The translations under genes and the position numbers were made by a program. Below the pieces are notes generated by a model. It did no database searches. It had not been told where the DNA came from and saw only the letters and a list, made by a program, of their open reading frames with translations. From an uncultured Bacillota bacterium (lineage in GTDB: Bacteria > Bacillota > Clostridia > Acetivibrionales > DTU013): DNA of 64,000 bases. This document shows positions 6,829 to 53,318 of the stretch, piece after piece. Within the stretch, counting starts at the first letter, position 1; every line of letters begins with the position of its first letter. The stretch covers positions 1,103,566 through 1,167,565 of the forward strand of contig OW818679.1 of NCBI GenBank assembly GCA_942493145.1. The letters are read 5' to 3'.

Positions 6829-7250
6829 ATGAAGTAATGCTTGCATTTGCCGGTAGTTTTTGTGCCGGAGTATTGTTCAACATCAAAGGTATGAAAATGT
6901 TCTGGATGGGCATTTCTGGCGCGGCAGGATGGCTGGTCTACATATGGTGCTATAATCTTACCGGACAATCTGTAATGTCGATTTTCATTGGTGCTGTTGT
7001 AGTGGGTATATACAGTGAGAGTGCAGCACGTCTGCTCAAAAGCCCTGCAACCATATTTTCCATTCCAGGTATTTTTCCCATTGTTCCGGGAATCGCAGCG
7101 TATGAAACGATACAATTCCTTGTCACAGGAAATCTGGATGCTGCTGGCGGTAAAATGCTGGAAACCCTAACCGGCGCCGGAGCAATAGCTTTTGGTATCA
7201 TGCTGGTCACAGCCATGTTCAGAATAATATTCAAAAGAATCAGAAGATAG
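6825..7250 (+). CDS. Threonine/serine exporter family protein, C-terminal-type (DUF3815)
   Basis: ATGA overlap with the upstream gene. Small four-TM protein (MNEVMLAFAGSFCAGVLFNIKG..), the usual partner of DUF1212. Confidence 0.8.
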   Translation: MNEVMLAFAGSFCAGVLFNIKGMKMFWMGISGAAGWLVYIWCYNLTGQSVMSIFIGAVVVGIYSESAARLLKSPATIFSIPGIFPIVPGIAAYETIQFLVTGNLDAAGGKMLETLTGAGAIAFGIMLVTAMFRIIFKRIRR

Positions 7251-7427
7251 TTAACTCTTATAACTGTGCAACTTAACTGAGCAACTTAACTGAGCAACTT
7301 AACTGAGCAACTTAACTGAGCAACTTAACTGAGCAACTTAACTGAGCAACTTAACTGAGCAACTTAACTGAGCAACTTAACTGTGCAGCTTAACTGAGCA
7401 GCTGAATTGCGTGCGCAGCTTAATTTA
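7251..7427. repeat. 13-bp tandem repeat array, unit CTTAACTGAGCAA
   Basis: Eight perfect head-to-tail units at 7272-7375. Degenerate units flank them on both sides (TATAACTGTGCAA, CTTAACTGTGCAG, CTTAACTGAGCAG, CTTAATTTAGCGG). Confidence 0.95.
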
Positions 7428-7653
7428 GCGGGCATGGCTGCAGGCTGGCTGAATGTTTGCGAACAGCTGCAGGCTGTTATGCTGATCCGAAGTCGTAATG
7501 GGGCACCAGGAACATAATGCCGAGCCATGGATGGCGAGGCCGCTGGTCTGGAGGAACGGATTCCGACTGACCTGCGCCCCCATTATGACGAGGATGAAGC
7601 ATTACAGCCTGCCTGTGAGCAAACCTGAAGCCCAAGCCTGCAGCCATGCCCGC
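7428..7653 (+). ncRNA. Candidate structured element, unclassified (copy A of a two-copy family)
   Basis: 18-bp perfect closing stem 7428-7445/7636-7653, with the arms paired almost end to end. The apex has unpaired CAGGAACATAAT followed by two small hairpins. It is homologous to 29353..29581 on the opposite strand, with compensatory changes. Strand is assigned by analogy to copy B, which lies sense-downstream of the transposase. Confidence 0.5.
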
Positions 7654-7657
7654 ACCT

Positions 7658-8362
7658 TTACATCGGTTTCATAAACTGTTGCGTCCAGTAGCATACACCT
7701 TTGCTGTTCTTAGCCAATCCGACGCCTATTTCTGTATAAGTCGCACTCATTATATTGCTCCTGTGGCCGGGGGAGTTCATCCAGGCGTTCATTACCTCCT
7801 GGGGAGTCTGCTGGCCGTATGCGATATTTTCACCGGCAGCTGAAAACCTGAGGCCGAAATTCTCCATCATTTGGAAGGGCGTTCCGTATGTGGGAGATGT
7901 GTGCGAAAAATAGCCCTTGTTTGCCATATCTGCAGATTTGTATCGTGCTACCCTGCAAAGCTGCCAGTTTGCCTTAAGAGTCTGGAGGCCTGCTTTTGAT
8001 CTCTGTACATTGACCAGCCTGATTACTTCGTTTTCCTGGGCAGTTGTTGTAACGGTCGGTATATTGAGCTGTTGACCGGGATAAATCATATTGGGATTCT
8101 TTATCTGCGGATTGGCAGAAATTATCTCACTTACACCGACCTGGTTCCTTGATGCTATTCTCCACATGGTATCGCCGGACTTAACGATATATGTGGTGGA
8201 TTGGGCAAAGGTTTGCGCAGTGAAAACCAGCAGCACCGCAGTTATAAGAAGGATTTTTTTTCTGAAACCGAAACGCTTTTTAAAACCAAACCGCTTGTTA
8301 AAACCGAGCCGTGTCTTAATTTCCAGTATCCAATCTTCCTTCACATTAGAATCTTTCATCAT
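7658..8362 (-). CDS. Secreted LysM-domain plus CAP/SCP (YkwD-like) domain protein
   Basis: Signal/TM segment. LysM: YIVKSGDTMWRIASRNQVGVSEIISANPQIKNPNMIYPGQQLNIP. CAP domain: VN.QR...GL..L.......A..KS.DM....YFSHTSP.YG.....M......AGENIAYG......V...WMNSPGHR.NI. Confidence 0.85.
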   Translation of the reverse strand: MMKDSNVKEDWILEIKTRLGFNKRFGFKKRFGFRKKILLITAVLLVFTAQTFAQSTTYIVKSGDTMWRIASRNQVGVSEIISANPQIKNPNMIYPGQQLNIPTVTTTAQENEVIRLVNVQRSKAGLQTLKANWQLCRVARYKSADMANKGYFSHTSPTYGTPFQMMENFGLRFSAAGENIAYGQQTPQEVMNAWMNSPGHRSNIMSATYTEIGVGLAKNSKGVCYWTQQFMKPM

Positions 8363-29198: not shown

Positions 29199-29235
29199 AG
29201 CCGGATTGTATAAGGGGTTAAACCCTTGTTCAATC
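29199..29235 (+). terminator. 5' half of the clpE-like terminator, split by the IS insertion (3' half at 30909-30918)
   Basis: Removing 29236-30908 restores AGCCGGATTG...CAATCCGGCT followed by TTTTTTATT. Confidence 0.7.
29228..29235. repeat. Target-site duplication, left copy (GTTCAATC)
   Basis: An identical 8-mer directly flanks the other IS end at 30901-30908. Confidence 0.85.
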
Positions 29236-29293
29236 GGCTCTACGTCAATAGTTGGGGTGGGGCACAAGTAAAATAAAATATTGATATATTTTC

Positions 29294-29334
29294 CCGGCGG
29301 ATGACCAAAATGATATTGGTTATCTGCCGGTTTT
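29294..29334 (+). terminator. Subterminal hairpin plus T-run inside the IS end, oriented to stop transcription entering from the flank
   Basis: CCGGCGGATGACC / GGTTATCTGCCGG (two G.U pairs on the + strand), followed by TTTTGG. Confidence 0.45.
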
Positions 29335-29352
29335 GGTTTGTAAAGGCGTTAT

Positions 29353-29581
29353 GCAGGTGGGTCAAGCAGGTACCAGCATCAGGCTCCGTCACAGACAGGC
29401 TGTAGGAAGAAAAGGCTCGCTGCAATGCGGGCGCCGGTGAAACGGCGTCCATGCCTATGCACCGGCGGCTGTGCCATCGTGGCACACCTTTATGTTCCTT
29501 GAGCCGCATTCCAGCTTCTCCATACTTCACAGCCTGTAACCGTTCCTCCGCATTCTGCTATATACTGCTTAACCCACCTGC
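29353..29581 (-). ncRNA. Candidate structured element, unclassified (copy B, IS-borne)
   Basis: Closing stem 29353-29367/29567-29581 (14 of 15 pairs). Inner stems 29395-29403/29529-29537 and 29419-29430/29504-29515. Apical hairpins 29433-29466 and 29471-29485. Conserved unpaired motif at 29489-29501. It lies directly after the transposase stop codon on the same strand. Confidence 0.5.
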
Positions 29582-29587
29582 TTTTTA

Positions 29588-30763
29588 TCAAGACATAACA
29601 TGCAGTATGCGATTCCGGAATCTCTTGAAATTCCTTACACCAAAAGCATTTCGCTTAATTACCTTGATCTTGTTGTTCACCCCTTCAGTGTAACCATTGG
29701 AGAAAGGGTGTTCAAATGAGTTGAGGATTTCATCGCTCCAGTTCATAAAAGTTCTTGTACATGCTTGAAATTCAGGCAAATTGTAACCAGTGGCCATCAT
29801 GTTCCAAACTCCTAATTGCTTCTTTGCATCATCTCGGCGTTTACACTCCATAAGCTTATGGAATTCATTCTTCATACGGTAGGCCTGCCTTAATCGGTCA
29901 GAGACATTAAGCATGGCTTCAACCTGGGCAACTTCGTCTTCAGTGAGATTTTCTGGCTTTTTCAAAAGCAGCTTCCTACTGCGTTTGAAATACTTCCTTC
30001 GGGCATCATGGAACCTCGACTGTTCATCTTTCCTGACATTTTCAAAAGCCCAGATGACCTGCCGTACGACATGATACCTGTCCGCAATTATCTTTGCATG
30101 TGGGAACAGGCTTTTTGCAAGGCTCCGATAAGGTCCGCTCATATCGATGACGACATACTGGACCTTTTTCCGATCCTTGTACTTAAGAAAATATCCGCTC
30201 AAGTCCTCTGTTCTTCTGTTGGGAAGGATATCCAACACCTTCTTGTGTTCAGGATCTGTAACAATACATTGGAACTTTTCTCCACCGGCATTTCCCCGGA
30301 ATTCATCCAGTGAAAGTACCCTTGGCAAATCCTTGTTTGAATATCCTACATGATCAAAGATTCTAGCTGCTGTAGGTTGAGATATGTTAGAAACGGCTGC
30401 AACACTTTTCATTGAACGAACCTCTTTCAATGAGCTGATTACATGGGCTGCAAGGCGACTTGTCATTCGATGATACCTTGGAAGGAACGATACTTCTTCA
30501 AAAAAACGTTTCCCGCATAAGGGGCAAACATGACGCCGCTTTGTAAGATATATGACTGTGGTATCACCAAATGCCGATATGTCCTTTATCGGCTGCGTCC
30601 TATAGTCGTGAACCTTGCTTGTCCTTTCTCCACACCTGGGACATTTGTGAATTCGCTGATACATACCCACATGAATACACAACTTATTGTCATTCCTTAC
30701 AACGGATTTTAGAAAAACATCTTTCAAACCTAACAATTCTTCCGTATAATTAGTGTAGAGCAT
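29588..30763 (-). CDS. ISL3 family transposase
   Basis: N-terminal zinc ribbon (CPRCG...CPLCG), HTH, then the DDE domain (..SLDEFRGNAGGEKFQCIVTDPEHKKVLDILPNRR.., ..VVIDMSGPYRS.., ..SNGYTEGVNNKIKVIKRNAFG). Confidence 0.95.
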   Translation of the reverse strand: MLYTNYTEELLGLKDVFLKSVVRNDNKLCIHVGMYQRIHKCPRCGERTSKVHDYRTQPIKDISAFGDTTVIYLTKRRHVCPLCGKRFFEEVSFLPRYHRMTSRLAAHVISSLKEVRSMKSVAAVSNISQPTAARIFDHVGYSNKDLPRVLSLDEFRGNAGGEKFQCIVTDPEHKKVLDILPNRRTEDLSGYFLKYKDRKKVQYVVIDMSGPYRSLAKSLFPHAKIIADRYHVVRQVIWAFENVRKDEQSRFHDARRKYFKRSRKLLLKKPENLTEDEVAQVEAMLNVSDRLRQAYRMKNEFHKLMECKRRDDAKKQLGVWNMMATGYNLPEFQACTRTFMNWSDEILNSFEHPFSNGYTEGVNNKIKVIKRNAFGVRNFKRFRNRILHVMS

Positions 30764-30900
30764 AGATTGAATTTCCTTTCAAATGGTGTGTCGCAACTTC
30801 ATTTTACTTGATAATTCAACTCTATGCTCTTTCTTTATGCAAAAAAATGCTGGAGCAGTTAAATTATTAATCTAACCACCCCAACATTTATTATAGAACC

Positions 30901-30908
30901 GTTCAATC
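30901..30908. repeat. Target-site duplication, right copy (GTTCAATC)
   Basis: Matches 29228-29235. Confidence 0.85.
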
Positions 30909-41178: not shown

Positions 41179-41282
41179 ATTGAGCAAGAAAAGAAATAGG
41201 GTAATGCAGCGATTAAATCAGGTAATACGGTGAATAAAAAGAAGCCGGATAATGGATGCCGGATGACGGAAGGACGATGAAT

Positions 41283-42104
41283 ATGAGCGAATTGATAAGG
41301 GGATTGACGCCCGAGGAGGCGAAGCTGCCTTATGCCAAATATTACTACAGGCCAATAGCACCACCGAATCCAAAACTGATTGAGATACTGAAACAGGGGC
41401 CTATGGATCCTGCGAAGGCACTGAAGCCCGAAAACATAAACGACTTGCTGAATCCAGGTTATCATGAAGTAGAGACCGGCTATTGCATTATGCCGGATGG
41501 AACAGGATATGCGGCTATCAACAACGTGTTCCCCGGATCTACCGTTGAAATGCACAACTGGTGGTTTGCCTGGCATGCGCTTGAAGACATCAGATACATG
41601 CTCTGGTTCAATAAGGGGCATTTTGGCATCCGTATCAGCGATGCCGACAGGGCGAAGATACTTGACCCCGATGTACCAATGGTAAAGAAGTACCAGGGTA
41701 TGCAGCATCATGTAGTAGAAGATGTGGGTGGTGGAGTGGAGGACATAGAAATCAATTTCCTGACACCGGAGGAAATGGGCTTTGATATGGAACGGTTCAA
41801 AGCCCCGGCTGTCGCAACTATAGTCGGAGCCAACGGATTTTCCCAGGCAAGGGCTGGAGGCCCAAAAGCCCCTGCAATAATGCTGCATTTCGCCCGTGAG
41901 ATTCCCGGCGGTATCGAATTCCGCACACGCTTCTGGATGGGCTGGCATATGATCAACGGAAAGCCGGTCAAACTGCTTCCGGACGGAATCAGGATACCAA
42001 TTCAGGCACCCATGGGCCTGGCCTTCCATAATGTGGAGGAGTACAGCAACCTGGCAGCATTTCTCCCTGAAATCTACAAGGAGATGCAGGGCAAGGTGTC
42101 GTAA
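41283..42104 (+). CDS. DAPG/phloretin hydrolase family (PhlG-like) C-C bond hydrolase
   Basis: Recognised from the family-like pattern ..YYRPIAPPNP.., VETGYCIMPDGTGY, WWFAWHALEDIRYMLW, and the C-terminal HNVEE (HxxxE). Recalled, not searched. Start is 41283 (GGAAGGA 8 nt upstream) or 41256. Confidence 0.6.
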   Translation: MSELIRGLTPEEAKLPYAKYYYRPIAPPNPKLIEILKQGPMDPAKALKPENINDLLNPGYHEVETGYCIMPDGTGYAAINNVFPGSTVEMHNWWFAWHALEDIRYMLWFNKGHFGIRISDADRAKILDPDVPMVKKYQGMQHHVVEDVGGGVEDIEINFLTPEEMGFDMERFKAPAVATIVGANGFSQARAGGPKAPAIMLHFAREIPGGIEFRTRFWMGWHMINGKPVKLLPDGIRIPIQAPMGLAFHNVEEYSNLAAFLPEIYKEMQGKVS

Positions 42105-42117
42105 TTCAAAGTATATT

Positions 42118-42209
42118 GGCTCTACGTCAACAGTTGGGGTGGGGTACAAGTAAAAAAATATAGATGTATTTTCGGTGGATGATTTTATTGATCATCCACC
42201 GTTTATTTT
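42118..42209 (+). repeat. Solo ISL3 end: terminal inverted repeat plus subterminal terminator hairpin, with no IS body
   Basis: GGCTCTACGTCAACAGTTGGGGTGGGGTACAAGTAAAA matches 29236-29273 with 2 mismatches over the first 38 nt. It is followed by CGGTGGATGAT / ATCATCCACCG and TTTATTTT. No transposase or second IR follows. Confidence 0.8.
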
Positions 42210-53284: not shown

Positions 53285-53318
53285 AAATGCGGGCGCTGGA
53301 TAATCAGCGCCCGCATTT
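53285..53318 (+). terminator. Strong hairpin after hydA-2
   Basis: AAATGCGGGCGCTG / CAGCGCCCGCATTT 14-bp stem with no clear T-run. Confidence 0.5.

Follow-up and report, generated by a model that had tools for sequence, protein, structure and literature searches.

A putative divergent subfamily of the TwoAYGGAY RNA motif associated with ISL3 insertion sequences of Clostridia

Two copies of a Y-shaped element found in a 64-kb window (the whole stretch of DNA analysed in this work) probably represent a divergent subfamily of the known orphan motif TwoAYGGAY (RF01731), since copy B and several homologues in other genomes give sub-threshold matches to this Rfam model and the published descriptions of the motif fit the element. 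What is new is that an ISL3 transposase unit carries the element in its 3' region, and that solo copies exist in apparently lineage-specific DNA; a link between TwoAYGGAY and ISL3 was not found in the literature searched. A plausible, if tentative, reading is that this divergent TwoAYGGAY RNA acts as a scaffold, read in the sense direction, that shows GGA loops to a dimeric RNA-binding protein, most likely CsrA. We are much more confident of the element being a structured RNA of the TwoAYGGAY class than of CsrA being its partner.

Results

Two homologous copies of a branched element

The features identified in the window are listed in Table 1. When folded as RNA, copy A reaches a minimum free energy (MFE) of -141.3 kcal/mol, against a shuffle mean of -80.7 (z = -12.8, a value equalled by 0 of 200 shuffles), and copy B reaches -120.4 kcal/mol, against a shuffle mean of -80.8 (z = -8.6). 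The Y-shaped element at 7428-7653 and the helices listed for it in a preliminary description of this DNA were recovered in the MFE fold of copy A, which consists of helices 7428-7446/7635-7653, 7469-7477/7604-7612, 7479-7483/7598-7602, 7485-7488/7592-7595 and 7492-7503/7578-7589. The same description had pointed out a diverged homologue on the opposite strand at 29353-29581, and homology between the two copies was confirmed (nhmmer E = 2e-14), with 65% identity and scores of 145 bits for copy A and 152 bits for copy B with covariance model R1. No third copy was found in the 64-kb window beyond A and B, either with nhmmer or with R1. A simple hairpin, AAUGCGGGCGCUG...CAGCGCCCGCAUU, is located on the minus strand at 53287-53316, with arms that resemble P5 and the base of hairpin 2 of the element; its match to the covariance model is weak (14.6 bits, E = 0.15), and either the collapse of a former copy or chance resemblance might account for it.

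Table 1. Coordinates, strand and main characteristics of the features identified in the window.
Feature	Position	Strand	Characteristics and basis
13-nt tandem repeat array	7261-7400	+	10.8 copies of TAACTGAGCAACT, 96% matches; directly upstream of copy A, in the same putative lineage-specific block
Copy A	7428-7653	+	226-nt Y-shaped TwoAYGGAY-like element, outside any IS; fold z, score with covariance model R1, helix list
Copy A, 5' junction	7504-7518	+	Unpaired, CACCAGGAACAUAAU with conserved AGGAAC; MFE fold
Copy A, hairpin 1	7519-7540	+	Tandem G.A pairs, loop C-AUGGAU-G; MFE fold, alignment
Copy A, hairpin 2	7541-7576	+	Tandem G.A pairs, apical ACGGAU; MFE fold, alignment
Target-site duplication, right flank	29228-29235		GATTGAAC, perfect 8 bp, identical to 30901-30908
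ISL3-family insertion sequence	29236-30900	-	Complete, 1665 bp, containing copy B; terminal inverted repeats GGTTCTATAATAAATGTTGGGGTGG and GGCTCTACGTCAATAGTTGGGGTGG
Inward-facing terminator hairpin	29294-29330	+	Between copy B and right inverted repeat; terminator scan; predicted to stop plus-strand transcription short of copy B
Copy B	29353-29581	-	229-nt homologue inside the IS, begins 6 nt past the transposase stop codon; fold z, covariance model R1, Rfam
ISL3 transposase gene	29588-30763	-	391 aa; Pfam DDE_Tnp_ISL3 (E = 1e-74), Zn_ribbon_ISL3, HTH_Tnp_ISL3
Inward-facing terminator-like hairpin	30845-30889	-	Other IS end (left repeat side); terminator scan
Target-site duplication, left flank	30901-30908		GATTGAAC, perfect 8 bp, identical to 29228-29235

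Covariation and conserved motifs

Eleven homologues were compared, namely copies A and B and nine others (L019, L020, L021, L057, L082, L090, L091, L102 and L103). They are built on a long stem of about 60 pairs, irregular and G+C-rich, with a three-way junction that has an unpaired AGGAAC and two short hairpins. RNAalifold on the alignment of the 11 sequences (A3) gave 54 pairs, 32 of them with compensatory change. When 42 core pairs were evaluated, 96.0% of the cells turned out to be paired, versus 86.6% in shuffles, and changes on both sides were present in 22 of these pairs (40 cells), the shuffles giving 6.7 pairs and 9.3 cells, with 0 of 500 reaching the observed values. In a control where partners were slid by 1-3 columns, pairing went down to 30-40% and no more than 5 pairs showed changes on both sides. 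The differences between copies A and B had previously been described as compensatory and attributed to selection on a folded single strand; the particular changes quoted at that time were verified, and the second claim agrees with the strong covariation and with the fact that homologues keep the helices rather than break them.

The outer arms form 23-36 pairs in all 10 full copies despite sequence drift, as they differ among A, B, L020, L090, L091 and L103, and the terminal helices of the closing stem consist of 17-19 perfect pairs. Rather than being unrelated in sequence, as first thought, the closing stems are fast-evolving, with recognisable stretches common to B, L102 and the L019 group. 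The idea that they could be guide-like or target-related sequences was dropped, since by eye they resembled neither the ends of the IS nor its target duplication.

With respect to the apex, loops correspond exactly to AYGGAY in 17 of the 22 hairpins of the 11 copies and contain GGA in 21, the exceptions to the consensus being ACGAU (hairpin 1 of copy B), AAGGAU, AAGGAC, AGGAU and ACGGAA; both apical loops read C-A-N-G-G-A-N-G. The junction AGGAAC is present in 9/11 homologues, as is a purine-rich internal loop containing GGA (RAGGAGCA or GGAGGAAC). Tandem G.A pairs, with GA opposite GA, could be read from the sequences in hairpin 2 of nine copies out of 11 and also in hairpin 1 of copy A. In one of the homologues, hairpin 2 is split in its 3' half by an 87-nt insertion with a hairpin of its own (L019:1461-1547).

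Relation to TwoAYGGAY

At curated thresholds there was no match to Rfam anywhere in the 64-kb window. With a permissive threshold, copy B gave a match to the full RF01731 model (33.6 bits, E = 0.0011). The scan covered seven of the 11 members (A, B, L082, L019, L090, L021 and L020), and five of the homologues also matched on the same strand, with scores of 37.4 (L082), 34.9 (L019), 32.4 (L090), 32.2 (L021) and 29.7 bits (L020), so that all six matches (29.7-37.4 bits) are below the gathering cut-off of 43 bits for this family. The matches of the homologues are mostly limited to the two-hairpin core of the model (positions 49-108). For copy A, no Rfam match was obtained at E <= 10. A scan of this kind had been suggested in the preliminary description, where the element was considered not assignable to any family; this last statement has to be revised in view of the sub-threshold matches of copy B and five homologues and the presence of the published hallmarks of TwoAYGGAY, even if the scan returned nothing for copy A.

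TwoAYGGAY owes its name to two AYGGAY terminal loops, its closing stem is in many cases very long (24 base pairs, for example), and it has been found in Clostridia, gammaproteobacteria and the human gut; in the published alignment, giant outer stems enclose two short hairpins, and several copies of the canonical motif are present in Psychromonas ingrahamii (Weinberg et al., 2010). Tandem G.A pairs are also a feature of the motif (Gardner and Eldai, 2015; PMC4333381). Our element has in common with it the adjacent pair of hairpins, where both the AYGGAY loops and the tandem G.A pairs occur, the helix that encloses them, followed by a very long and poorly conserved closing stem, and its hosts, which are Clostridia. 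The element differs from the canonical motif in that it lacks the CGG..GCGUCA segment conserved downstream of hairpin 2, it has its own conserved helices (CAGGCUGU/ACAGCCUG and GCUGGAAUGCGG/CCGCAUUGCAGC) and the AGGAAC junction, it is carried inside ISL3 elements, and its scores remain under the Rfam cut-off. A preprint dated 24 September 2026 ("Minerva", bioRxiv 10.64898/2026.09.22.753630) may give TwoAYGGAY a different function. Judging from its word counts, AYGGAY appears 56 times, including the abstract, reverse transcriptase 14, pseudoknot 12 and phage 11 times, transposase once, and ISL3, insertion sequence, transposon, CsrA and RNA-binding do not appear; on these counts, the preprint does not appear to describe the ISL3 link.

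Copy B is part of an ISL3 insertion sequence

As an element, copy B was correctly delimited in the preliminary description, which missed its placement inside an insertion sequence. The latter can be ascribed to the ISL3 family by its DDE_Tnp_ISL3 transposase, its inverted repeats and the 8-bp target duplication. Its left end is GGTTCTATAATAAATGTTGGGGTGG and its right end is ...CCACCCCAACTATTGACGTAGAGCC, the repeat search giving a 26-nt arm with 73% complementarity. The order of elements is left repeat, inward terminator, transposase gene, 6 nt, copy B, second inward terminator and right repeat. The terminator located next to copy B (29294-29330) is kept in all the related IS copies examined, whether the element is present or absent, and because of it plus-strand transcription entering the IS should stop before reaching copy B. 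Both terminators would shield the transposase unit from outside transcription, and copy B would be read as the tail, i.e. the 3' untranslated region, of the transposase transcript.

Elsewhere in the window, a right end of this ISL3 type occurs alone at 42118-42205, consisting of inverted repeat GGCTCTACGTCAACAGTTGGGGTGG and the inward terminator hairpin, without transposase. It directly follows the ORF at 41256-42104 and may now act as its terminator.

Solo copies and their surroundings

Copy A and L090 are solo copies, located outside IS. In the case of copy A, the element itself is as had been described, and what had been overlooked is that the surrounding DNA is absent from related genomes at the matching site. 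At the matching site, L111 and L112 lack a block of around 400 bp (7251-7657) that comprises the 13-nt array, a small hairpin and copy A. In two related genomes, with a topoisomerase 85% identical, ThrE_2 and LysM/CAP face each other as convergent genes across a gap of only 18 bp, while in the closest relative (91% identical) ThrE_2 is followed by different genes. The element was not found at any of these three syntenic loci matching the copy A site and, since the syntenic loci of relatives are without the block, positions 7251-7657 appear to be lineage-specific DNA. The small hairpin of this block (7401-7429) lies between the 13-nt repeat array and copy A.

L090 is flanked by a tRNA gene with a terminator of its own and by a convergent gene encoding a membrane protein. 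The possibility that copy A or L090 were what is left of a decayed IS was ruled out, as neither a transposase nor similarity to ISL3 ends could be detected nearby; inspection of the sequence flanking copy A revealed no target duplication.

Distribution among ISL3 relatives

A search for the transposase in representative genomes yielded 61 loci, and the element was found after the transposase stop codon in L019, L020, L021 and L057. A pattern scan of metagenomes (13 matches, 9 of them due to chance) added the IS-borne L082 and the solo copy L090, and contigs encoding close homologues of the transposase added L091, L102 and L103, with the element, as well as an IS type that is devoid of it (L092-L101). 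Altogether, the element occupies the same IS position in eight related ISL3 copies from other Clostridia (L019, L020, L021, L057, L082, L091, L102 and L103). The hosts of the homologues appear to be Clostridia of digesters and bioreactors (Acetivibrionales, Clostridiaceae and relatives of Ruminiclostridium). Close IS relatives without the element are L018, L022 and L092-L101. In L018, L022 and L023-25, whose transposases are 65-81% identical to that of the window, the slot between the stop codon and the terminator is occupied by unrelated A+T-rich spacers. The element was found in none of the more distant ISL3 relatives (covariance model search, 71 loci). Other ISL3 relatives have different G+C-rich, well-folding inserts in the same slot (L025:1310-1540, L053, L048 and L047), none of which matches R1. 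This slot, running from the stop codon to the end of the IS, may accommodate cargo in general.

Among IS-borne copies, the higher the identity between transposases, the higher the identity between elements (Spearman 0.48, 36 non-independent pairs), and because element identity tracks transposase identity, the RNA has diverged together with its IS and has undergone several losses. Copy A is an outgroup, 61-66% identical to every other copy, and L090 is 73-80% identical to the IS-borne copies. In L057 (2501-3674) the transposase gene is broken, the longest ORF reaching the stop codon being of 155 aa, and the RNA element downstream is intact. As for other types of mobile DNA, copy A had no match in plasmid and phage collections (blastn), and two pattern scans of viral contigs gave chance matches or nothing; a strict pattern had no match in the representative genomes.

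Discussion

G-U pairs are almost absent from the element (2 of 449 core cells, equal to the A-C count), so wobble pairs do not tell RNA apart from single-stranded DNA, nor one strand from the other, and the opposite strand, or DNA, would be just as able to adopt these helices. As a conjecture, the rarity of G-U could derive from selection for very stable stems. There are other indications with respect to the strand. In 6 of 7 sequences the sense strand gives the better fold, the antisense fold being weaker by a small margin, and the sense strand alone has the tandem G.A pairs and the GGA loops, with the Rfam matches on that same strand. In addition, the IS terminators are oriented in such a way that sense transcription would be permitted and antisense transcription from outside would be blocked. 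These facts suggest that the sense strand of the element is favoured.

In the mechanism we propose, the element in copy B would correspond to the 3' untranslated part of the ISL3 transposase transcript, and the IS lineage with the RNA has kept it through long divergence. A rigid scaffold would present two GGA loops around 29 nt apart and one or two extra GGA sites, a dimeric RNA-binding protein, most likely CsrA, would bind the GGA loops, and the RNA could then either sequester this protein or bring it to the transcript. CsrA is considered the most likely partner because of the match between the loops and its consensus site and because of the CsrA proposal published for TwoAYGGAY. Regarding the former, the loops fit the RsmE/CsrA consensus, A/U-C-A-N-G-G-A-N-G-U/A (derived from SELEX and work on RsmE), and there are multiple candidate GGA sites, i.e. 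the two C-A-N-GGA-N-G loops, the AGGAAC junction and, in 9/11 copies, the internal loop. [quoted passage not shown] Points against the CsrA scaffold are the near absence of G-U pairs, the existence of close IS relatives without the element, the Rfam scores under the cut-off, the fact that copy A is unmatched and, by its word counts, the lack of CsrA and RNA-binding in the 2026 preprint. A motif scan revealed no csrA-like ORF in the 64-kb window, which is part of a 4.34-Mb genome.

Like CsrB, CsrC and RsmX/Y/Z, the element has GGA motifs in hairpin loops and single-stranded linkers. As in sRNAs titrating CsrA/RsmA, its loop sequence fits the consensus, and sites with a spacing of about 29 nt could be bridged by one dimer. 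It is unlike CsrB, which has up to ~20 sites, in that the candidate sites are 2-4 and are placed on a long rigid duplex. The CsrA/RsmA sponges known to us are gammaproteobacterial, and in Bacillus the known antagonist of CsrA is a protein, FliW. A second term of comparison are the structured RNAs that originate from transposase units, such as the sRNA derived from the 5'UTR of IS200 tnpA (PMC5435999), the bridge RNA of IS110 and the omega RNA of IS200/IS605, which the element resembles also in being inherited along with the IS. It differs from all of these in its location 3' of a DDE transposase of the ISL3 type, in being dispensable in close relatives and in showing no guide-like variable segments in single-stranded form, since its variable parts pair together.

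Several of the observations could also be explained if the element were a selfish palindromic repeat of the MITE or ERIC type, spreading at the DNA level, whose hairpin would be a by-product or would only affect mRNA stability in a general way, without any specific partner. Copies A and B are both in accessory DNA (B in an IS, A in a block missing from relatives), canonical TwoAYGGAY is multicopy in P. ingrahamii, and, pairing being almost entirely Watson-Crick, folding occurs with either strand. ERIC and MITE repeats share with the element the character of long imperfect palindromes between convergent genes, with a structure kept by paired changes, and they are transcribed within neighbouring mRNAs. 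However, the element lacks the conserved terminal inverted repeats and the target duplications characteristic of MITEs, the termini of the copies not being conserved and no duplication having been seen around copy A; copy number is low, with just two copies in 64 kb that are 65% identical; and the element co-diverges with the IS, with no jumping among IS copies. Besides, loops and junction, and with them the branched apex, are conserved while the stems covary, which argues for a sequence-specific reader. We consider this explanation rather unlikely.

The position of all copies at the 3' end of a co-oriented gene, with the solo copies facing a convergent gene downstream, together with closing stems of 17-19 perfect pairs and the location of the IS slot past the stop codon and before the IS end, would be in agreement with a cis-acting 3'-end structure that sets the stability of the transposase mRNA and, for the solo copies, that of the transcript of the upstream gene, be it an exonuclease block, an RNase III site or a barrier to read-through. 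The likelihood we assign to it is similarly low, since a simple hairpin would be enough for that purpose, leaving the Y-shaped apex, the GGA loops and the AGGAAC junction unexplained. There is also no U-tract after the closing stem in copies A and B, and IS relatives cope with an A+T-rich spacer in the same slot.

That the element works in the form of single-stranded DNA, with its hairpin serving for instance in priming, recombination or protein loading when DNA is replicated or transferred, seems very unlikely. The near absence of G-U pairs, the antisense folds that are only slightly weaker and the tie to mobile DNA would be expected in that case, but searches of plasmid, phage and viral collections did not find the element, the transposases of ISL3, being of the DDE type, use double-stranded ends, close IS relatives lacking the element do transpose, as indicated by their target-site duplications, and the loops match the site of an RNA-binding protein. 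A single-stranded DNA promoter similar to Frpo was discarded as well: no boxes resembling -35/-10 could be seen in the stems by eye, and a promoter scan of positions 7000-8000 was empty. Finally, a small peptide starting after the AGGA of the junction is hardly credible and was dropped because the ORFs are not conserved, in line with the preliminary view that a peptide is unlikely. The small ORFs of the copies have different starts, lengths and sequences. In copy A an AUG does come after AGGA with a typical spacing, and a common MVCHGRQTRWH-like peptide could be read from the sequences of L019, L082 and L021, but the start codon is missing or different in B, L102, L020 and L057, and length and sequence shift wherever the hairpin stems covary.

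Going back to the GGA-loop scaffold, a further step would be that the transposase transcript of this ISL3 lineage has for a long time included, in its 3' part, an RNA serving as decoy for CsrA or some other reader of GGA loops that acts as a global post-transcriptional regulator. We see this as unlikely. If it were true, each new copy of the IS would tie transposase output to host physiology or shift the regulatory balance, and it would represent the first function for TwoAYGGAY, a motif without demonstrated function since its description in 2010 in the literature covered, and the first IS-borne decoy of a regulator in Firmicutes. We know of no RNA antagonist or recruiter of CsrA established in Clostridia; if the GGA loops do bind CsrA, the element would be one of them, and it would be carried on mobile DNA. 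The subfamily offers a defined transcription unit (the ISL3 transposase mRNA), natural IS variants with and without the element, and compact loop motifs that can be mutated.
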